Source of the DNA: Armatimonadota bacterium
GTDB taxonomy: Bacteria > Vulcanimicrobiota > JACPDS01 > JBDRKI01
NCBI GenBank assembly: GCA_043814095.1
Contig: JBDRKI010000027.1
Coordinates: 1-19,971 of the forward strand
DNA length: 19,971 nucleotides
Reading direction: 5' to 3'
Within the stretch, counting starts at the first letter, position 1. Every line of letters begins with the position of its first letter. Made by a program: the position numbers and the translations under genes. The notes beneath the pieces are model-generated. The model worked only from the letters and a program-made list of their open reading frames with translations, did no database searches and was not told the origin of the DNA. Below are positions 7,539-19,179 of this stretch, piece by piece.

Positions 7539-8312
7539 TTAAAAATCACTGACTATCTCGATCAGATCGTTACTTATTTGTTTCGTAAGGTTTATAAATT
7601 TTATGCCGCAAAAATACTTATTATGCTGTTCTGAAAATTCCGCCCAGATAACTTTTCCCGTGCAGTAAACGGTTTTATTCCCGTTCTTCAGCTGTATGTA
7701 TAATAACTCGTTTACGGACAGATTTTCCTCTGATGCTATTTTAACCCCGCCCCTGCTTATGTCTACTGTGTAAACCACAGCCGTGTTTTCAGATAAGGTT
7801 TTATCCTGTTTAAACACCTGGTATATAACAGGTATGGTTTTATGCAGTCTTATATACTGCCTTTTATCACCAGCATCTTTTTCGGGCGGATTTATAAAGC
7901 GCAGTATCTTGTTTCTGTCTTCTGAAGATAAATTCTTGAAAATAACATGAGCAAGATAAATATCCTTTAACTTTGTCTGTTTTATGCTTGCGATATAACC
8001 TATTATGTTTAACTGGAGTTTATTTATAAGTATATTAAGCAGAAGTATCGTATTAATTTCAAGCTGTTTTTTAAATACTGCGTATATACCCCCCCCGTCA
8101 TTTAAAAAACTGAAGATTGTGCCGCATCCGCTGTATGAGGCCTCTTTATTCGTAGCCTGGAAATTGAAATTATAAGGGGTTGGGAGCATGAAAGAATCTT
8201 TAAAATCGGGTATATTTTTTAATTCCTGTATAATAACCGAGGCCCCGGAGTTATGCCCTTTTGAAGTTGAAAATTCTTCAGTGTCAATTGTGTTTAAATC
8301 TTGTTTATCCAT
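7539..8312 (-). CDS. PilZ-domain (c-di-GMP-binding) protein
   Basis: C-terminal domain with RQYIR (RxxxR) and DISRGG (D/N-x-S-x-x-G), GKVIW and GIKF. It is preceded by a degenerate PilZ-like segment. RBS GGAG. Confidence 0.85.
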   Translation of the reverse strand: MDKQDLNTIDTEEFSTSKGHNSGASVIIQELKNIPDFKDSFMLPTPYNFNFQATNKEASYSGCGTIFSFLNDGGGIYAVFKKQLEINTILLLNILINKLQLNIIGYIASIKQTKLKDIYLAHVIFKNLSSEDRNKILRFINPPEKDAGDKRQYIRLHKTIPVIYQVFKQDKTLSENTAVVYTVDISRGGVKIASEENLSVNELLYIQLKNGNKTVYCTGKVIWAEFSEQHNKYFCGIKFINLTKQISNDLIEIVSDF

Positions 8313-8396: not shown

Positions 8397-8413
8397 GTTA
8401 ACATTTTGTTAAC
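8397..8413. promoter_or_regulatory. Two GTTAAC hexamers at 11-bp phase; putative transcription-factor site
   Basis: GTTAAC-ATTTT-GTTAAC (8397-8402, 8408-8413) in the pilZ/orphan divergent intergenic region, the same motif as at 10947-10985. Confidence 0.65.
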
Positions 8414-8441
8414 AGACAAAAGAAAGATTATTTTGTATAAT
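8413..8441 (+). promoter_or_regulatory. Putative sigma70 promoter with a weak -35
   Basis: CAGACA-N17-TATAAT, followed by RBS GGGGG and ATG 8476. Confidence 0.6.
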
Positions 8442-8475: not shown

Positions 8476-8952
8476 ATGATAAGCAATATTTCACAGACCG
8501 CAATCCATAACTTTAACAAGGCGGAGAAACCCGGCAGGCTTATAAAAAACAAGACATGGTTAAGCAAAGTTGAACTGGATGATAAAACGGATCTGATAAC
8601 AGAAAAAGTTTTTGATCCCGAAGAAGATAAGTTTACCGATAAAATAAAATACATGATTCTCGAGATGGATTTAGGGCCAACGCAGACCTACAATGTAGGA
8701 CGGGTTTTCCGTTATAAACTGAAGCTGGAAGACGGGAAATTTACATTCATAAACGCATATATCCGCGGCATGAAGTACGATGGGTCCGGTGATAAGTGGG
8801 ATTTTACCGTAGACCGTGTTGATAAAACAAGCAAGGAAGAGATTATTCTGCCAAGGTTGGCGAAAATAAGAGAGGATCAGCAAGAAAAAGGGAATAAAGA
8901 TATAGTTACCGTGCTTAATTATGTCATTGACGGGACTGAAATGCTGAAATAA
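8476..8952 (+). CDS. Hypothetical protein
   Basis: 158-aa ORF with RBS AAGGGGG and an upstream promoter. No family recognised. Confidence 0.75.
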   Translation: MISNISQTAIHNFNKAEKPGRLIKNKTWLSKVELDDKTDLITEKVFDPEEDKFTDKIKYMILEMDLGPTQTYNVGRVFRYKLKLEDGKFTFINAYIRGMKYDGSGDKWDFTVDRVDKTSKEEIILPRLAKIREDQQEKGNKDIVTVLNYVIDGTEMLK

Positions 8953-8964
8953 AAAGGTAATTTT

Positions 8965-9666
8965 ATGAGTGATGGTATTATACGGCAAACCCATGAGCTT
9001 TTATCCGAACAGCTGCCCGGCGCTCAAAGAGCAAAAGCCAGAGAATATCTTAAAAATTTGTTTGGGGATCAAACTTTGGATTTAATGACCCAATCGTTGA
9101 GTAAATTTACGGAAGAATTTCAGGGAAGGCTGGTTGTCAGGATAAACGATAAATGGATGAAAGTAAACAGTGGCTTTAGCGTTACAGAGCAGGAGCGGAT
9201 TGTAAGTTTTCTTTCCGGGGGCAATAGCACCGAAGTTAACCGCATAGGGGAGCGTCTTTTAAATGAGATGCTTATGGATCGTAATACTCCAAAATTTATA
9301 GTCAGGATCTTTACGGTAGAAAAAGCGCATGATACTTTTTTGTCGTTATGCTGTAATCTAGATGGAATAAAAACCCAGATTGAAACTGGCGTCTTCGGCG
9401 CTAAATATGTTACGGACTTTGTTTTGGACTCTGCCGCTCTTGATGCGGAAGGAAAGATTCTTTTGGAAAAATATGCTGCCAGACTTAACAGGACTGTTCC
9501 CGCAGCAGGTGTTGACAAGTTCCGAAAAAACGTAAAAGTAAAATCTTCTTCTGTTTCTAATTTTGAAGGATTAAACAAGCCCAAAGGCGGCATGCGCGGG
9601 ATAAGGTGTTTTAGAATAAAAATAAAGAATTTTAAGGTTAAAAGATTTAAATTTCCGTGGATATAA
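8965..9666 (+). CDS. Hypothetical protein with a very basic C-terminal tail
   Basis: 233-aa ORF with RBS AAGGT, 12 bp after the previous gene. No family recognised. Confidence 0.65.
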   Translation: MSDGIIRQTHELLSEQLPGAQRAKAREYLKNLFGDQTLDLMTQSLSKFTEEFQGRLVVRINDKWMKVNSGFSVTEQERIVSFLSGGNSTEVNRIGERLLNEMLMDRNTPKFIVRIFTVEKAHDTFLSLCCNLDGIKTQIETGVFGAKYVTDFVLDSAALDAEGKILLEKYAARLNRTVPAAGVDKFRKNVKVKSSSVSNFEGLNKPKGGMRGIRCFRIKIKNFKVKRFKFPWI

Positions 9667-9721: not shown

Positions 9722-10897
9722 ATGCGGGAAGAAAAAAAGATATTCGGCTTTTCTAAAAATATTTTCAATCTAGGGCTTATAAGTTTTTTTACGGATTTTT
9801 CCAGCGAGATGATATACCCGCTCCTGCCCGTGTTTTTAACTTCGGTTCTTCACGCTTCTTTTGCTTTCGTAGGTGTGGTTGAGGGCATAGCCCAGAGCAC
9901 GGCAAGCATACTGAAGCTTGTCTTCGGATGGCTTTCGGATAAGACAAATAAAAGAAAAGTCTTTGTCGCCACAGGATATACTATTTCTTCAATAATAAGG
10001 CCCATGGTTGCTTTCGCGGTCGCTCCGTGGCAGGTTCTTTTTATAAGGTTTGCGGACAGAGTCGGCAAGGGCATAAGGAACGCCCCAAGGGATGCTTTAA
10101 TCGCAGATACTTGCGAACCAGACAAAAAGGGCAAAGCGTTCGGTTTTAACAGGGCCATGGATCACGCCGGCGCGGTAATAGGGCCGCTGGCCGCGTATCT
10201 GCTTCTTCTTTATTTTACAAATAATTACAGGCTTGTTTTCGCGCTCTCATTTATCCCCGCGTTAATAGCTGTTTTTATTGTCTTGTTTTTAATAAAAGAA
10301 AAGAAAAAAGATAATATCTGCAAGAATGAACCCGTCAAATTAAATTTTAAGATTTTTGATAAAAATTTCAAAACATTCTTAATTGTTATTTTCATTTTCA
10401 CGTTAGGCAACTCATCAGACGCTTTCTTAATACTCAGGGCAAAGGATCTGGGTATACCGGTTGTCTTTCTGCCCGTGTTATGGATGCTGCTTCATATTGT
10501 TAAAGCAGTCGGCGCCGGTCCGGGCGGGGCGTTATCCGATAAGCTCGGGAGGAAGAAAATCATTATAGCCGGATGGATTGTATATTTTCTTGCATATCTT
10601 GGTTTTGCCTTTGCCGGTAATTCATATCATATATGGCTGTTATTTGCGGTTTACGGCTTCTTTTTCGCTCTAACGGAAGCCGCGGAAAAGGCTTATGTGG
10701 CGGATCTGGTTGATGATAATATCCGCGGATCAGCTTACGGGGCATATAACTTCATAATAGGCATAGGAGCCCTCCCCGCAAGCTTAATAATGGGTATTTT
10801 ATGGCAGAAGTTCGGGGTAGTTTCAGCATTCTCATTTGGGGCTGTTTTAGCCGTAATTTCGGCATTTTTGCTTGCATTTACGGTCAAAAACAAATAA
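9722..10897 (+). CDS. Major facilitator superfamily transporter
   Basis: About 12 hydrophobic segments, MFS motif A in both halves (GWLSDKTNKRK and GALSDKLGRKK), and RFADRVGKGIRNAPRDALIAD. Confidence 0.95.
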   Translation: MREEKKIFGFSKNIFNLGLISFFTDFSSEMIYPLLPVFLTSVLHASFAFVGVVEGIAQSTASILKLVFGWLSDKTNKRKVFVATGYTISSIIRPMVAFAVAPWQVLFIRFADRVGKGIRNAPRDALIADTCEPDKKGKAFGFNRAMDHAGAVIGPLAAYLLLLYFTNNYRLVFALSFIPALIAVFIVLFLIKEKKKDNICKNEPVKLNFKIFDKNFKTFLIVIFIFTLGNSSDAFLILRAKDLGIPVVFLPVLWMLLHIVKAVGAGPGGALSDKLGRKKIIIAGWIVYFLAYLGFAFAGNSYHIWLLFAVYGFFFALTEAAEKAYVADLVDDNIRGSAYGAYNFIIGIGALPASLIMGILWQKFGVVSAFSFGAVLAVISAFLLAFTVKNK

Positions 10898-10946
10898 AAT
10901 CCTTATTTTATAAGTGCTTTTTAAGTATTATTATAAGGGGCGAAAT

Positions 10947-10985
10947 GTTAACAATTTGTTAACAAAAAGTTAACGAAATGTTAAC
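10947..10985. promoter_or_regulatory. Four GTTAAC hexamers at exact 11-bp periodicity; putative OmpR/PhoB-family (Pho-box/ArcA-box-like) operator
   Basis: GTTAAC at 10947, 10958, 10969 and 10980 with 5-nt A/T-rich spacers, ending 9 bp upstream of a -35 element. Confidence 0.8.
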
Positions 10986-10994
10986 ATTTTCTCA

Positions 10995-11023
10995 TTGAAA
11001 AAAGATGCTTTTCCCCTTATAAT
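10995..11023 (+). promoter_or_regulatory. Sigma70 promoter of the metalloprotease operon
   Basis: TTGAAA-N17-TATAAT; RBS GAGGTG at 11078-11083. Confidence 0.8.
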
Positions 11024-11089
11024 ATAACTAAAGCAAAAAGCGGGCAATCTAGACTTGTTTATTTTGCTTATTTGCAAGAGGTGTGAATT

Positions 11090-12571
11090 ATGAATTTAAA
11101 CGGTTTATTTAACGGCATACTGGGAGCCGCGGTAAATTACGGAATAAATCAACTCACCAATCCTTATGTACAGGTAGATAATAATATACAGAGCCAGATC
11201 AGCCAGATGCAGTCACAGCTGGCAGCTAAGTTTGCGATGATAAATCAGGGCGCATTGGGCTCTCCCGGCAGCTCCGGCGGCATTGTGGGTTCAATCCCGA
11301 TGTACGGCGGACTTAATTCTTTCTGGAATTCCGGTGTGGATGCATCAACTGCAACGGGAGTTATAAACAAACCCACGATAGAGGAAACACACACAAGCGC
11401 GCAGGAGATTTCGGCAAGTTTAAGCGCGGAACCCCAGGATAGAGAAGCATTGATAAACGGTTTGCTTGATGATAAATTAGCCCAGCTTGTGGCAAAGGAT
11501 CCTAATACTCTTACAAAAACCGACATTTATTATTTAGGGCAGATTAAGAAACTAAAAGAAGACTTGAAAGACGTTCCTACTGAAGCACTGGAACTTTTAA
11601 AGAAGAACGGGACAAAGATTAAGATATCAACAAAAGGCGATTCACTGCAGGGTATGGGGGTTATTAAGGTCATAGATTCCAGCGGGGCTGAAAAAACGAT
11701 TTCAGATATAGTAGGGGTTTTGAATCAGGTAAAAGAAAATAACGGATTTAAAAATATTGATACTTCTGTAATAGGTAAAACTTTTACGGATTTAAAGATG
11801 ACTTATGTTTCACCGGATAAAAATTCCACCGATGTAAAAGGAATAGATGTATTTAAAGACCAGATCGCGAAAGAAGCCGTTTCAGTATCCGGCAATGAAT
11901 CAATGGGTGCGGAGATGGCGGAAATTCTTTCAAGCGAAGCTCAGACTAAGCAGTTTAAGGAATATCTGGAGAAGCGCAAAACCGATAAACCCGAAGACCT
12001 GCAGAAAACAGAAAAATTGATCGAGCTTGTCAATATGTGGGAAGCGGCAAGAAATTTGCCAGTTAAGCATGACGGACAGTACTACAGACCGCAGGAATAT
12101 GAAGTAATAAGGGCATGGGACAGCGGAGAGATCGAATCATTATATTCAAATACCGATAAGACTCTTTATTTAAAAGACGATGTTTTAGGCAAAGTAATGA
12201 GCGAAAAAGACGCAGGCAAAGTGGCAGTTCATGAACTGGCACACGCGCTTGAAAAGTCATTGCAGGATTTAGTGCCTGATGTGGGCAACAGTATAACTAA
12301 AAAGGTTGAAGAATATTATAAAGAAAATGCGGAGAAAGACCAGGATGCTATAAATATAGATCCGAACGGAACGAATGAGTTCATCACTCCTTATTCAAGC
12401 ACATGCGCATCAGAATATTTTGCAGAAACAGTAGCAGCTTACTTTTATCCGCCTAAGGCAGAGGTCTTGAAAAAGACCGACCCGAAGCAGTATAATTTAC
12501 TTAATGCTCTGTTTACGGAATTAGGTATAGCAAAACAGATAGCAATGGGCAATGTTCAGAAAACTGCATAA
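11090..12571 (+). CDS. Anthrax toxin lethal factor-related (ATLF/PPEP-like) zinc metalloendopeptidase with a low-complexity N-terminus
   Basis: VHELAHALE (HExxH, residues 381-385), followed by PY...SEYFAETVAAYF and LKKTDPKQY. The segment LKDVPTEALELLKKNGTKIKI resembles the start of the ATLF fold. No Sec signal peptide. Confidence 0.8.
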   Translation: MNLNGLFNGILGAAVNYGINQLTNPYVQVDNNIQSQISQMQSQLAAKFAMINQGALGSPGSSGGIVGSIPMYGGLNSFWNSGVDASTATGVINKPTIEETHTSAQEISASLSAEPQDREALINGLLDDKLAQLVAKDPNTLTKTDIYYLGQIKKLKEDLKDVPTEALELLKKNGTKIKISTKGDSLQGMGVIKVIDSSGAEKTISDIVGVLNQVKENNGFKNIDTSVIGKTFTDLKMTYVSPDKNSTDVKGIDVFKDQIAKEAVSVSGNESMGAEMAEILSSEAQTKQFKEYLEKRKTDKPEDLQKTEKLIELVNMWEAARNLPVKHDGQYYRPQEYEVIRAWDSGEIESLYSNTDKTLYLKDDVLGKVMSEKDAGKVAVHELAHALEKSLQDLVPDVGNSITKKVEEYYKENAEKDQDAINIDPNGTNEFITPYSSTCASEYFAETVAAYFYPPKAEVLKKTDPKQYNLLNALFTELGIAKQIAMGNVQKTA

Positions 12572-12587
12572 CAGGAGATTTATTTAA

Positions 12588-12881
12588 ATGAAAATAAAAT
12601 TAATACAGCCGTCAACCAATGAACCTATAGGAGAAGTAAGGTTAGAAGACAACAAAACAGTAATAGATGTAAAAGACGAAGAATTAAAGGGAAAACTGGA
12701 AGAGTTTTTCAAAATACCTATAGAGTATAAAGAGAATCTGGAATCAGAAGACGGGAGCGTAACTGCTTCAGCAAGAAAAAAGGCAGAACCGGGAACAGTG
12801 AAATTTTTTGAAAAAGCCGTCAGCGAACTTGGAAAATTCAACTTAAAAGGCGAACTTGAATACGACAGCTTCAAGTTTTAA
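12588..12881 (+). CDS. Small hypothetical protein (candidate immunity protein or chaperone)
   Basis: 97-aa Lys/Glu-rich ORF with RBS AGGAG, 16 bp after the protease gene. Confidence 0.75.
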   Translation: MKIKLIQPSTNEPIGEVRLEDNKTVIDVKDEELKGKLEEFFKIPIEYKENLESEDGSVTASARKKAEPGTVKFFEKAVSELGKFNLKGELEYDSFKF

Positions 12882-12895
12882 CCGGAGGACAGTAT

Positions 12896-13126
12896 ATGAG
12901 TACAGAACAAACAAGATTAAATGTAGATGTTTCTAGAGCCGCACAGGGCGCTATAAGCTTCGGCCAGGCTCCCGCGGAGAAGATTCACGAGTCATGGCAT
13001 GACCGCGGTGACGGTGTTGATGCAGACAATAAATTATTTAAATATGCCGCCTATACAGACCCGCAGAAACAAACTTGGCTTAATCTTTCCAAGAATTTCG
13101 GCTCTGGTTTTGACGGTTTAGTATAG
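12896..13126 (+). CDS. Small hypothetical protein
   Basis: 76-aa ORF with strong RBS GGAGG, 14 bp after the previous gene and directly followed by a terminator. Confidence 0.7.
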   Translation: MSTEQTRLNVDVSRAAQGAISFGQAPAEKIHESWHDRGDGVDADNKLFKYAAYTDPQKQTWLNLSKNFGSGFDGLV

Positions 13127-13151
13127 AAAAATATTAAAAAATCAGATAATT

Positions 13152-13182
13152 AAAAGACTCCTGTTTTCAGGAGTCTTTTTTT
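13152..13182 (+). terminator. Rho-independent terminator
   Basis: Stem AAAAGACTCCTG / CAGGAGTCTTTT with a TTTT loop, ending in a run of seven T (13176-13182). Confidence 0.9.
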
Positions 13183-13192
13183 ATGGTATAAT
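13164..13192 (+). promoter_or_regulatory. Putative extended -10 promoter overlapping the terminator
   Basis: TTTTCA-N17-TATAAT with TGn directly before the -10 (TGGTATAAT, 13184-13192), 9 nt upstream of ATG 13202. Confidence 0.6.
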
Positions 13193-13201
13193 TTAATTCC
13201 A

Positions 13202-13732
13202 ATGAAAAAGCTTGTATTTGACTTAGAAACCCAGAAATTAGCTGATGAAGTCGGCGGCTGGGGCAATATTAAAGATATGCTGCTCAGCGTTGCCTGTGTT
13301 TACAATCTTGATACTTCCGAAGAACTTGTTTTTACCGAAGATAAAGTTAGGGATCTTATCATAGAACTTCTTGGTGCTGATCTTGTAATAGGGTTTAATA
13401 TTATAAACTTTGATTACAAGGTGCTGCAGGCATATACCCATCTTGACTTAAGGCAGATAAAGACTTTAGACCTTTCCTGGGAAGTTAAGAAAAACATGGG
13501 CCGCAGGATTAGTTTGAATAATCTTGCCAAAAACACGTTAAATAAATCTAAATTAGGTTCTGGCCTGGAAGCTGTGGAGTGGTACAGGAATAAACAGATG
13601 GAACAACTTATATCTTACTGCATGGAAGACGTAAAAATTACCCATGAGCTTTATAAATACGGCAAAGAGATGGGCCATGTTTTTGCAGAACATGAAGGCA
13701 AGCGGTTCCGCGTGCCTGTCAGCTGGAGATAA
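13202..13732 (+). CDS. YprB/RNase_H_2-like DEDD 3'-5' exonuclease (stand-alone)
   Basis: ExoI VFDLET, ExoII IGFNIINFDY, SLNNLA, ExoIII YCMEDVKIT. Confidence 0.85.
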   Translation: MKKLVFDLETQKLADEVGGWGNIKDMLLSVACVYNLDTSEELVFTEDKVRDLIIELLGADLVIGFNIINFDYKVLQAYTHLDLRQIKTLDLSWEVKKNMGRRISLNNLAKNTLNKSKLGSGLEAVEWYRNKQMEQLISYCMEDVKITHELYKYGKEMGHVFAEHEGKRFRVPVSWR

Positions 13733-13814: not shown

Positions 13815-14423
13815 ATGAAATTTCAGGATTTTTATAAAGCGCTTGTAAGGAAAAAATATTATATTTTTTCTTTTAATGATATACTGACTTTTTTTCCGAA
13901 AGAAAATAAGAGTAATCTTGAAAAACGTATTTATACATGGAAAAAGAAAGGTTGGGTTTATTCAATTAAAAAAGGATTGTATGAGTTGACTTATCCCCAG
14001 GATATTATAATTCCTGATTTATATATAGCAAACCGCCTGTATGCGCCGTCCTATATTTCTCTGGAAACAGCCCTGTCGTATTACAGTATTATTCCTGAAG
14101 TTGCCATGGGGGCAACCTCTATAACTACAAAACCTACAAGAAAATTTAAAAACAAACACGGTTTTTTTTCTTACCGCACTGTAAAGCCCGTACTTTTTAC
14201 CGGATATTCAATATTAGAACAGAACGGTTTTGAAGTTTTAATAGCTGAGCCGGAAAAGGCCTTGGTAGATTATTTGTATTTTAATAAGGGTGTAGATTTT
14301 GAAGAAGAAAGATTTGAAAAGGACGTACTATCTAAATTAAACAGGAGAAAGTTAAGGTATTATGCCGAATTATGCAATATTAATTTAAAGAGGTTTTATG
14401 CTTACTTACGAGACATTGATTAG
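13815..14423 (+). CDS. abiEi: Type IV toxin-antitoxin antitoxin, AbiEi family
   Basis: N-terminal winged-HTH ending IKKGLY, then PSYISLETALSYYSIIPE and AEPEKALVD. Overlaps the downstream toxin gene by 26 bp. Confidence 0.88.
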   Translation: MKFQDFYKALVRKKYYIFSFNDILTFFPKENKSNLEKRIYTWKKKGWVYSIKKGLYELTYPQDIIIPDLYIANRLYAPSYISLETALSYYSIIPEVAMGATSITTKPTRKFKNKHGFFSYRTVKPVLFTGYSILEQNGFEVLIAEPEKALVDYLYFNKGVDFEEERFEKDVLSKLNRRKLRYYAELCNINLKRFYAYLRDID

Positions 14424-15204
14424 TCAGGCCAAGATCAGGGAAATGCCCGCAAATAAATTAAGGGGTATATTAAGGGAATATATACAGATCCTTATTTTAA
14501 AAGAAATATCACGTTCTAAATCAGGTAAGAAGATTTATTTTTTAGGGGGTACTTACCTGAGACTTATTCATAACTTGAGAAGATTTTCTGAAGATTTGGA
14601 TTTTAATGTATTCGGCATGAATAAGGGAGAATTTGAGAAACTTATTCGGTTTGTAAAAACAGAACTTCAAAGATTCGGGATTAATTCCGAATCAACTTTT
14701 AAATATAGAAACAACTTATTAACTGCTAATATGATTTTTCCCGATATAGAAGAAAGGTACAATGTTAAAAGTAATTATAAACATAAAGGATTTATAATTA
14801 AAATTGAAACAAATTCTCCTTCTTATAAAATAGAGACAGAAACAGAGGTTCTTTCTGGTTTTGGAGAGGTATTTCCGATTCTTTGTATGAAAAAAGAATG
14901 TATATTTGCCGAGAAAATAGACGCTTTGATTAAAAAAAACAGGGGGCGTCATATTTATGATGTAATTTTTATGCTCTCTGCCGGTTTTCCAGTAAGCAAG
15001 AAGGTACTTTTGAATAATAACATAACAGAACCTCCGGACAAAGTTATTCTAGACAGAATTAATTCTTTTTCTTCTCAGGAACTTAAAAAACTGGCAAAAA
15101 ATTTACAACCTTTTTTATTTGATGAGAAAGATTCAGAATTAGTTGCTGATGCTCCTCTGGTTATATCATCTTTGCTTGGAAAGAGAAAATTAGAAGTTGT
15201 ATAA
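14398..15204 (+). CDS. abiEii: AbiEii/DUF1814 nucleotidyltransferase toxin
   Basis: FLGGTYLR, RRFSEDLDF, IKIE, AEKIDAL, RGRHIYD. RBS AGAGG. Confidence 0.92.
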   Translation: MLTYETLISQAKIREMPANKLRGILREYIQILILKEISRSKSGKKIYFLGGTYLRLIHNLRRFSEDLDFNVFGMNKGEFEKLIRFVKTELQRFGINSESTFKYRNNLLTANMIFPDIEERYNVKSNYKHKGFIIKIETNSPSYKIETETEVLSGFGEVFPILCMKKECIFAEKIDALIKKNRGRHIYDVIFMLSAGFPVSKKVLLNNNITEPPDKVILDRINSFSSQELKKLAKNLQPFLFDEKDSELVADAPLVISSLLGKRKLEVV

Positions 15205-18009: not shown

Positions 18010-18519
18010 TTACCTTATTCTTCCCGGCGGCCATATTTTTGCCTGAGCTTTGCCGGTAATTAAATTTTTATCTACTGGGCCGTAAGATCTTGAATCTTCA
18101 CTTTCGGTACGGTTGTCTCCCATCAGGAAAACATACCCCCTTTTTATATTCACGGGGCCGTAATTTTCCCTGAAGAATCCGCAATTAAAATCCTGCGGCA
18201 CATAGCTGTCGTTTATATACAGTAAACCATTAATTATTTGAATCTTTTCTCCTTCAAGCCCTACGACTCTTTTTATAATTTCTTTTTTGGGATTGTAAGG
18301 ACACTTTGAAATTACAACATCAAATCTTTTGAGTTTTGCAATCCGGTACAGGAACAGGTTTGTTATGATTCTAGCGCCTTCGTTAAGAGAGGGAGACATG
18401 GAATTACCGTATATTATGTTTACCCTGAAGAAGAAGCCGGTAATGATGAACGCAGCGATAAGGACTTTAACGGTAAATAAAAAAAGATGCTTTAATTCTT
18501 TGCTGTTTAAATACTGCAT
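18010..18519 (-). CDS. lepB: Signal peptidase I (second, shorter paralog)
   Basis: One TM segment, then GNSMSPSL (catalytic Ser), IIKRVVG (catalytic Lys) and MGDNRTESEDSRSYG. Confidence 0.93.
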   Translation of the reverse strand: MQYLNSKELKHLFLFTVKVLIAAFIITGFFFRVNIIYGNSMSPSLNEGARIITNLFLYRIAKLKRFDVVISKCPYNPKKEIIKRVVGLEGEKIQIINGLLYINDSYVPQDFNCGFFRENYGPVNIKRGYVFLMGDNRTESEDSRSYGPVDKNLITGKAQAKIWPPGRIR

Positions 18520-18534
18520 AATATTATTTAATGA

Positions 18535-19179
18535 TTATTTTAAAATTGTGATCCGCGGAGGCGGCCATATGATTATAAAGGCTTTGCCTACAATATTTTT
18601 TTGAGGCAGGTATCCCCAGACATGGCTGTCGCCGCTGTTTGATCTGTTGTCCCCGAGGACAAAATATTTATTCCTCGGGATGGTTAATTTCTCAAGCTCG
18701 TAATCGGCAAGGTTCTTAACGAAGACCTCATTTTGTTTTTTGCCGTTTAGGTAAAGGTATCCGTCTTTTACCTGCACGGTATCCCCGGGCAGAGCCACTA
18801 TTCTTTTTATGTATTCTTTGTCTCCGGCGTGCGCGGACGGAGGGGGGTAGAAAACCACTATATCGCCTTTTTGGGGATCTGAAAAGCGGTAGATAAATTT
18901 ATTGACAAGTATAAAATCCCATTTTTTTAACGTGGGGTACATTGATTCTGAAGGTATATAGAAAGGCTGTACTATGAACTGTATTATGATTATTGCAGAT
19001 ATGCCGGCTATAATTATAGAATCAACCCATTCTTTTATTACAGCATTTGCCTTCTCTGACAGGAAAAAAGTCCTGTTCTGTGTTTTGCATTTTTTTTCGT
19101 AAAAGTAAAGAAAAAGTCTTATTACGAATAATATCCCGATAAAAGCTGCCAGCTGAGGTATGGTGATGGAAAACGGCAT
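18535..19179 (-). CDS. lepB: Signal peptidase I
   Basis: Two TM segments, then IPSESMYPTL, YIKRIVALPGD and LGDNRSNSGDSHVWG. Confidence 0.95.
   Translation of the reverse strand: MPFSITIPQLAAFIGILFVIRLFLYFYEKKCKTQNRTFFLSEKANAVIKEWVDSIIIAGISAIIIIQFIVQPFYIPSESMYPTLKKWDFILVNKFIYRFSDPQKGDIVVFYPPPSAHAGDKEYIKRIVALPGDTVQVKDGYLYLNGKKQNEVFVKNLADYELEKLTIPRNKYFVLGDNRSNSGDSHVWGYLPQKNIVGKAFIIIWPPPRITILK

Follow-up and report, generated by a model that had tools for sequence, protein, structure and literature searches.

We analysed a stretch of 19,971 nucleotides (nt), hereafter the window, corresponding to positions 1 to 19,971 of contig JBDRKI010000027.1 from an Armatimonadota bacterium (assembly GCA_043814095.1). 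It carries a three-gene operon in which the gene of a putative zinc protease of 493 amino acids (aa) is followed by two small genes, for proteins of 97 and 76 aa, and our concern here is this operon, above all the relation between the protease and the 97-aa protein. The features of the operon are as follows, ORF standing for open reading frame.

10946-10986, no strand assigned: array of four phased boxes (TGTTAACA-like, GTTAAC core, 11-bp period), candidate response-regulator site
10995-11023, forward strand: sigma-70-type promoter TTGAAA-17-TATAAT, consensus match only, at 11 of 12 positions
11090-12571, forward strand: protease ORF, 493 aa, from the ORF list
12467-12496, forward strand: internal promoter-like site TTGAAA-18-TATAAT at the 3' end of the protease gene, consensus match only, at 11 of 12 positions
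12588-12881, forward strand: 97-aa ORF, from the ORF list
12896-13126, forward strand: 76-aa ORF, from the ORF list
13152-13179, forward strand: intrinsic terminator at the operon end, with a 12-pair stem, a 4-nt loop and a T run

The genes are closely packed, with 16 nt between the protease and 97-aa ORFs and 14 nt between the 97-aa and 76-aa ORFs. Shine-Dalgarno-like sequences (AGAGG, AGGAG and GGAGG) lie 8, 10 and 7 nt upstream of the protease, 97-aa and 76-aa ATGs, respectively, and the terminator is the sole terminator-like site in positions 10500-13500. Codon usage in the annotated frame gave log-odds of +0.33 (protease), +0.52 (97-aa) and +0.24 (76-aa) bits per codon, with 14 Pfam-supported window genes as the yardstick (range 0.12-0.48), and was negative in all five other frames of each ORF; by codon usage the three ORFs are gene-like. 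No paralogues of the three proteins were found within the window, and Rfam and tRNA scans gave no match. The internal promoter-like site lies about 90 nt upstream of the 97-aa ORF and could, as its sequence suggests, drive the small genes independently of the protease.

A first description made without database searches (the sequence-only reading) had proposed this arrangement as a self-contained unit. The box array, the promoter, the three ORFs with their ribosome-binding sites and gaps, and the terminator were all recovered, so the layout stands. The unit is not fully self-contained, however, because the same box pair is found at 8397-8413 before a second operon.

The protease and its family

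The 493-aa protein contains the motifs HELAH at aa 381-385 (nt 12230-12244) and EYFAE at aa 442-446 (nt 12413-12427), with Tyr435 between them. The Pfam family ATLF (PF07737) matched aa 374-473 at 37.1 bits (cut-off 27.4). Peptidase_M90 was also above its cut-off (35.6 bits against 26.2), covering profile positions 133-242 of 243 alone, and together the two matches span residues 362-475. PHROGs gave a weak match to "peptidase" (E 0.0021), whilst neither NCBIfam nor PADLOC returned a family for the protease or for either small protein. We take the motif residues to have the zinc-ligand and catalytic-tyrosine roles known from the literature on lethal factor and the Pro-Pro endopeptidases (PPEPs). 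Part of this assignment for ATLF-like motifs is set out in passages of PMC12943098. Judged from its motifs and profile matches, the protein is a predicted ATLF-superfamily gluzincin with an intact catalytic set (H381, E382, H385, the Tyr435 position and E442). The ATLF domain that the sequence-only reading had proposed from the motifs was thereby upheld, with PF07737 above its cut-off and the motif residues invariant in the family described below.

No Pfam family reached its curated cut-off in residues 1-360, although four sub-threshold matches (E 0.023-0.3) touch this stretch. The first 100 aa are rich in glycine (14%), asparagine (12%), serine (10%) and glutamine (8%). As the highest 19-residue hydropathy of the protein is just 0.84, it would have neither a signal peptide nor a membrane segment; leaders of the Sec, double-glycine and lipoprotein kinds were considered and dropped, there being no hydrophobic core. 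An AlphaFold2 model built on a 12-row family alignment (predicted local distance difference test, pLDDT, 77.7; predicted template modelling score, pTM, 0.68) was confident over residues 101-490 and gave a pLDDT below 50 for residues 1-100. Hydropathy, composition and the disorder of the N-terminus in the model all agree with the earlier description of a Sec-less N-terminus rich in G, S, N and Q. In the model the catalytic domain of about 390 aa (101-490) consists of the ATLF core and a helical insertion of about 140 aa (approximately residues 186-325).

When the model was compared with the PDB in Foldseek, the top matches were all PPEP-2, lethal factor, PPEP-1 and PPEP-3, with a probability of about 1.0 over about 140 columns though with weak E-values (0.07-0.5). 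The family profile matched lethal factor (E 1.1e-6) and PPEP-1 (E 4.4e-6) among PDB sequences. Its N-terminal element, "L..vP.e.Lellkk.G.kI.iv", can be aligned to lethal factor and PPEP-2 and also aligns with the start of the lethal factor N-domain. The protease shares with lethal factor and PPEP-1, PPEP-2 and PPEP-3 (ATLF, MEROPS M34) the HExxH motif, a downstream glutamate in an E[YF]FAE helix and a tyrosine seven residues before that glutamate. Identity in the aligned part is only about 17-22%, and the 493-aa protein differs from these enzymes in its helical insertion of about 140 aa, its disordered N-terminus of 100 aa and its lack of a signal peptide. The PPEPs of the listed PDB entries are compact chains of 186-230 aa, as against a domain of about 390 aa here. 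The protease likewise lacks the protective-antigen-binding and other domains of lethal factor, and nothing indicates animal toxicity.

MtfA is reportedly a cytoplasmic peptidase related to lethal factor, and it is a protease controlled by a protein partner. Likeness to MtfA and the M90 family lies in the above-cut-off M90 match over the catalytic half and in the apparently cytoplasmic nature of the protease, as judged by sequence. The profile coverage is partial, however, the architecture and partner are different, and there is no Mlc-type regulator nearby. Literature on PF07737, on lethal factor and polymorphic toxins and on HExxH immunity pairs was searched, and this architecture was not found described there.

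An exhaustive phmmer scan, made with the protease only, of 1.84 billion representative sequences (E<=1e-3) returned a family of 13, the query counted in. The relatives comprise three full-length proteins of 35-43% identity (P0003-P0005), two fragments (P0006 and P0007) and seven distant proteins of 393-560 aa. H381, E382, H385 and E442 are invariant in 12/12 aligned members, as are W343, P396, A445, L460 and D464 in the 12-sequence alignment, and Tyr435 is present in 10 of the 12 (alignment read by eye). ATLF was matched by 10/12 family members and M90 by 7/12. The match to the fragment P0007 (188 aa) is confined to the N-terminal region (42% identity over query 31-159), beyond which P0007 stops. 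It could be a free-standing N-terminal module, a pseudogene or a piece cut off at the end of a contig.

Other searches added little. A word-index search with the protease returned the window's own protein only, though this search is weak and missed a 43%-identical relative, and none of the three proteins of the operon had a tblastn match among plasmids or phages. Two scans of 185,579 species genomes gave one distant relative, L001 (a 360-aa ORF of 23% identity), which was found by the scan with the close-family alignment, the first genome scan having given nothing. Its neighbours, read off ORF translations, are exonuclease VII genes and a convergent RNase R-like gene.

Conservation along the chain bears on whether the protease is a secreted toxin. 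Identities between P0003 and the protease were 11/19 in the first 20 aa, 33/66 in residues 21-100 and 85/168 in the catalytic core; conservation in this pair is thus about equal at the N-terminus and in the catalytic part, and there is no pattern of a constant head and a variable tip. N-terminal identities were lower for P0004 and P0005 (7/20 and 5/20 in the first 20 aa; 19/68 and 18/80 in residues 21-100), and in these two the catalytic core is the better conserved part. A hydrophobic segment was seen in 1/12 family members only, P0014 (560 aa), where it is signal- or anchor-like and lies at about aa 76-90; this hints that at least some members act outside the cytoplasm.

One account of the operon is that the protease is an interbacterial or host-directed effector, exported by a non-Sec route that uses its conserved N-terminus, with the 97-aa protein protecting the producer. 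Passages of PMC3482391 list metallopeptidases of the ALF type among toxin domains that have an immunity gene next to them. They bear out what the sequence-only reading had stated on such toxin tips, and the same passages (Zhang et al., 2012) describe Tox-ALF-metallopeptidase polymorphic and Photorhabdus virulence cassette (PVC) toxins with PVC or type II secretion system delivery and Imm-SuFu immunity. The likeness to these consists of an ALF-type peptidase gene followed by the gene of a predicted protective partner, as the complex prediction below suggests for the cleft-blocking protein encoded directly downstream. The conservation of the extreme N-terminus with P0003 (11/19 in the first 20 aa, with no Sec signal), the signal-like segment by which P0014 (1/12 members) may act extracellularly, and the known zincin effectors with immunity proteins of type VI secretion systems are also in keeping with an effector. 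On the other side, none of the 19 window ORFs covered by the Pfam scan was a secretion-system gene, and neither the protease nor these ORFs showed a known trafficking domain. In comparison with the Tox-ALF systems as described in those passages, there is no PVC, type II secretion or other trafficking module and no variable tip, head and tip being about equally conserved with respect to P0003; the 97-aa partner is not of SuFu type, and no plasmid or phage matches were found. Neither the conserved-head, variable-tip arrangement of polymorphic toxins nor, by Pfam, a delivery domain or a trafficking module above cut-off could thus be found for the exported effector that had been proposed, and we regard this account as unlikely.

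The small proteins and the predicted complex

The 97-aa protein is acidic (11.1 kDa, pI 5.0) and has no signal peptide. Its monomer model shows a beta-beta-beta-alpha arrangement, a disordered loop at residues 44-65 (pLDDT <50) and an alpha-beta unit, and the Atlas model has a pTM of 0.67. It matched no Pfam (E<=1), NCBIfam, PADLOC or PHROG family, and thus no SuFu family. In Foldseek neither the PDB nor BFVD yielded a match at E<=1e-3, and phmmer against the PDB gave a low-complexity match to an ion-exchanger tail only (E 0.023). Its structural look-alikes in the Atlas are themselves unnamed.

The 76-aa protein is also acidic and is predicted to be disordered (Atlas pLDDT 0.45). No Pfam, NCBIfam, PADLOC or PHROG family and no PDB entry matched it, and its Atlas matches are leads without a common family. 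It contains an HExxH motif of its own, HESWH at aa 31-35 (window 12986-13000). This motif, next to the gene of an HExxH protease, may be chance or may mark a metal-binding peptide.

In the one complex prediction that we made, three chains were modelled together: the protease, supplied with its 12-row alignment, and both small proteins, of which the 97-aa protein was the partner scored. The three runs gave scores of 0.82, 0.82 and 0.83, whereas none of the 3 controls rose above 0.00. The mark that the runs reached was also attained by 116/157 solved complexes and 2/215 mismatched pairs, counts that are only roughly valid here as the job used its own alignment and three chains. Contacts common to the runs amounted to at least 72%, and the partner pLDDT was at least 85. 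The predicted contact is with the protease rather than with the 76-aa chain, because swapping out the protease brought the score to 0.00. PDB searches returned no solved relative of the 97-aa protein from which the model could have been copied.

On the protease, the predicted interface takes in the edge strand 347-355, W343, H381, E382, H385, residues 433-435 and 441-442, and the insertion helices 267-292. On the 97-aa protein, loop 46-64, part of the stretch that is disordered in the monomer model, supplies 18/35 interface residues. The body of the 97-aa protein is thus predicted to dock on the helical insertion, with loop 46-64 filling the catalytic cleft over the zinc site, and the 97-aa protein is a predicted cleft-occluding partner: an inhibitor, an immunity-like protein or possibly a substrate. 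The model supports a cognate inhibitor or immunity-like partner without proving one. The sequence-only reading had postulated a cognate immunity protein or chaperone; predicted binding across the active site (0.82 against 0.00) speaks for the cognate partner, whilst immunity of the SuFu type fell away.

The explanation that we favour, tentatively and in the knowledge that it may well be wrong, is that the operon encodes a rare, cytoplasmically made ATLF/M90 zinc endopeptidase together with a small, co-expressed proteinaceous inhibitor. The body of the 97-aa protein would sit on the helical insertion and lay loop 46-64 along the substrate-binding edge strand, over the zinc site. Inside the producing cell the enzyme would stay latent, to be freed by export of the protease or by removal of the partner, and the internal promoter-like site may keep the inhibitor expressed alone. 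The logic of such latency would be that of staphopain and staphostatin, or of serralysin and its operon-encoded inhibitor.

Both comparisons have limits. Passages of PMC1298937 describe, for staphopain and staphostatin and for SpeB and Spi, a cytoplasmic inhibitor encoded with its protease. The 97-aa protein resembles staphostatin, as described there, in being a small, acidic, signal-less protein encoded directly after a protease, and in a substrate-like binding of the active site that is here predicted only. Staphopain and SpeB are cysteine proteases, described as Sec-secreted zymogens, and there is no kinship in sequence or fold. Inhibitors of the AprI type are about 100 aa long. For serralysin, passages of PMC4070987 describe AprA and its operon-encoded inhibitor AprI/Inh, a metalloprotease with an adjacent small inhibitor that occupies the active site at the zinc, a likeness that is again only predicted for the present pair. 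AprI is described as a periplasmic protein that has a signal peptide and inserts its N-terminus, whereas the 97-aa protein has no signal peptide and is predicted to insert an internal loop. Serralysin is moreover a metzincin and the 493-aa protease a gluzincin. Zincin effector-immunity pairs and protease-inhibitor operons are already known kinds of system.

Substrates, too, bind along the edge strand, where the model puts the 97-aa loop within the cleft, and the same complex could describe a processing module in which the 97-aa or the 76-aa protein is cleaved and the product serves as a signal or an activated factor. PPEPs are secreted enzymes according to passages of PMC12828418 and PMC8610288, and the latter describes PPEP-adjacent genes as encoding substrates with P-P-X-P sites. 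That PPEP-1 and PPEP-2 cleave the proteins of adjacent genes is in line with a processing module, as is the disorder of the 76-aa protein, disorder being common in precursors. Unlike the PPEP substrates, however, neither neighbouring small protein contains Pro-Pro, and neither has a signal peptide. No processing or export genes lie downstream, and the folded 97-aa body makes a large second contact (267-292) that is more typical of tight inhibitors. We consider a processing module possible but, on balance, doubtful, and place it above the exported effector.

Control of the operon

The four GTTAAC cores of the box array, at 10947, 10958, 10969 and 10980, are spaced at exactly 11 bp, and the array ends 9 bp upstream of the -35 element. 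The pattern GTTAAC-N5-GTTAAC was counted 4 times in the window where 0.80 would be expected, a number that 2/200 shuffles reach, and it includes a further site outside the array.

8397-8413, no strand assigned: second GTTAAC-N5-GTTAAC pair, abutting a promoter-like site (8413-8441) at its -35

Downstream of this pair lie two orphan ORFs, 8476-8952 (158 aa) and 8965-9666 (233 aa), with no Pfam family; from the shared boxes, they may belong to the same regulon as the protease operon. TnrA/GlnR, Zur and other palindromic operators were considered as candidates for the array; TnrA was rejected, the half-site spacing being 2 bp too long.

Passages of PMC4168254 and PMC11870197 give consensus sites of the WalR/PhoP type, TGTWAH-N5-TGTWAH or TT(A/T/C)ACA x4. 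As defined there, the WalR pattern (<=1 mismatch) occurs 12 times in the window against 4.2 expected, with 8/12 in the two box regions, and the Bacillus PHO-box pattern occurs 9 times against 1.5 expected, with 8/9 in the two box regions; for each pattern, 0/200 shuffles attained the observed count. The boxes are direct hexamer repeats with an 11-bp period and match the WalR and Bacillus PhoP consensus in the form given in those passages. From these sites, control by a regulator of the OmpR/PhoB family is plausible, and it would be shared rather than dedicated, because a box pair also precedes the 8476-9666 operon. The dedicated two-component control that had been proposed for the operon found no backing: no regulator or kinase is encoded among the 19 scanned ORFs, and the same boxes precede the second operon. 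As part of the protease-inhibitor explanation, a WalR/PhoP-like regulator of the OmpR/PhoB family would bind the four phased boxes upstream of the -35 and switch the operon on, and the same regulator would also serve the operon at 8476-9666.

The intergenic region 10895-11095 is one long imperfect palindrome, with arms at 10921-10940 and 11013-11032 that bracket the array and the -10 element. As RNA it would fold into a hairpin of -53.1 kcal/mol (z -5.35), which follows from the palindromic core of the boxes. A major facilitator superfamily (MFS) transporter gene (9722-10897) precedes the region, with no terminator-like site after it, and the hairpin could act on read-through from this gene.

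Objections, neighbourhood and significance

Several results weigh against a protease-inhibitor operon under regulator control. Binding is here a matter of model confidence, from a job outside the calibration of the tool and with a partner that had no alignment, and a loop in the cleft suits a substrate as well as an inhibitor. The Foldseek matches of the protease are weak (E 0.07-0.5, none <=1e-3), with template modelling scores by target of 0.43-0.47. Interface residues outside the active site have a mean identity of 0.29 in the close family against 0.40 for the rest of the domain, and 4872/5000 random residue sets were at least as conserved as the predicted interface. Interface conservation therefore adds no support, the interface being less conserved than the rest of the domain; low conservation is compatible with fast co-evolution and equally with a wrong interface. 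No homologues of the 97-aa or the 76-aa protein were found by word-index search, a weak tool, the exhaustive search having covered the protease only. There are no small co-directional ORFs at L001, the single relative with genomic context. For the conservation of the trio, which the sequence-only reading had named as a check, this distant relative, standing alone, is a negative, and genomic context was seen for that relative only. On the side of control, none of the 19 window ORFs scanned belongs to the Response_reg, HisKA or HATPase families, and the palindromic core and the hairpin leave the array open to other readings.

Some of these points feed another account, in which nothing but joint transcription links the three genes. 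The complex prediction would then be a false positive, and the small ORFs would encode lineage-specific proteins that have nothing to do with the protease. The two small ORFs are both orphans, conservation is lacking at the interface, and L001 stands alone; moreover, 2/215 mismatched pairs pass the mark, and the job lies outside calibration. Set against this are the score of 0.82 compared with 0.00 in three controls, the reproducible contacts centred on the catalytic cleft, and the tight spacing of the genes between one promoter and one terminator. We consider the account of unrelated neighbours improbable, and rank it below the exported effector.

Genes beyond the operon end were also identified.

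13202-13732: stand-alone 176-aa DEDDh/RNase H-like 3'-5' exonuclease (Pfam RNase_H_2; PHROG "DNA polymerase exonuclease subunit")
13815-15204: AbiEi/AbiEii pair (PADLOC E 1.2e-45 and 7.3e-46), the genes overlapping by 26 nt

The exonuclease gene has its own promoter-like site (13164-13192), which overlaps the operon terminator. With the AbiEi/AbiEii pair and the DEDDh-type exonuclease immediately downstream, the neighbourhood has a flavour of defence, and the protease and the 97-aa partner are both cytoplasmic by sequence, as would suit a toxin-antitoxin-like or abortive-infection module in which a latent protease is freed from a labile inhibitor on phage attack or stress. However, no PADLOC or PHROG defence family was matched by any of the three proteins, and a large enzyme encoded first behind an activator-type promoter does not resemble the classical type II toxin-antitoxin pairs. 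As context, a single defence system next door is also weak, and a defence module is the least probable of the accounts given here. A more elaborate effector system would have an ATLF toxin leave by a hitherto unrecognised non-Sec route that reads its conserved, disordered and glycine-zipper-like N-terminus, a cleft-plugging immunity protein of new fold, the disordered HExxH third protein as a co-factor or release switch, and a WalR/PhoP-like envelope or phosphate sensor in control. We give this combination a very low probability, above that of the defence module and below that of unrelated neighbours.

Elsewhere in the window, a gene for a PilZ-domain protein (7539-8312) lies divergent from the first box-controlled operon. 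Passages of a 2026 paper (PMC12943098) describe a PilZ protein of Leptospira that carries a fused, inactive ATLF-like domain, and the link between this fusion and the window PilZ gene is one of proximity only. Between rplS and rnhB, the stretch 18010-19179 holds a tandem pair of signal peptidase I paralogues that are 35% identical. In tblastn, RpoD had its best matches in Bacillota (63-69%, against 56-58% for the others listed), whilst RecD2 was about 43% identical to many phyla and gave no clue to placement.

The protease-inhibitor system is, at present, a hypothesis with one computational support and not a demonstrated system. The family is extremely rare (13/1.84 billion representatives, query included, with 5 close relatives). 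If the protease-inhibitor explanation is true, the protease would represent a new branch of the lethal factor/PPEP enzymes with a large helical insertion as a docking platform, and the 97-aa protein would be a cognate inhibitor of a fold without a solved or annotated relative. To our knowledge, proteinaceous inhibitors of gluzincins are few, so one that inserts a loop into an ATLF-type cleft, and is specific for it, would be of interest to protease biochemistry. With an N-terminus that is conserved and signal-less, it may also be asked whether such enzymes leave the cell at all and, if so, by what means.

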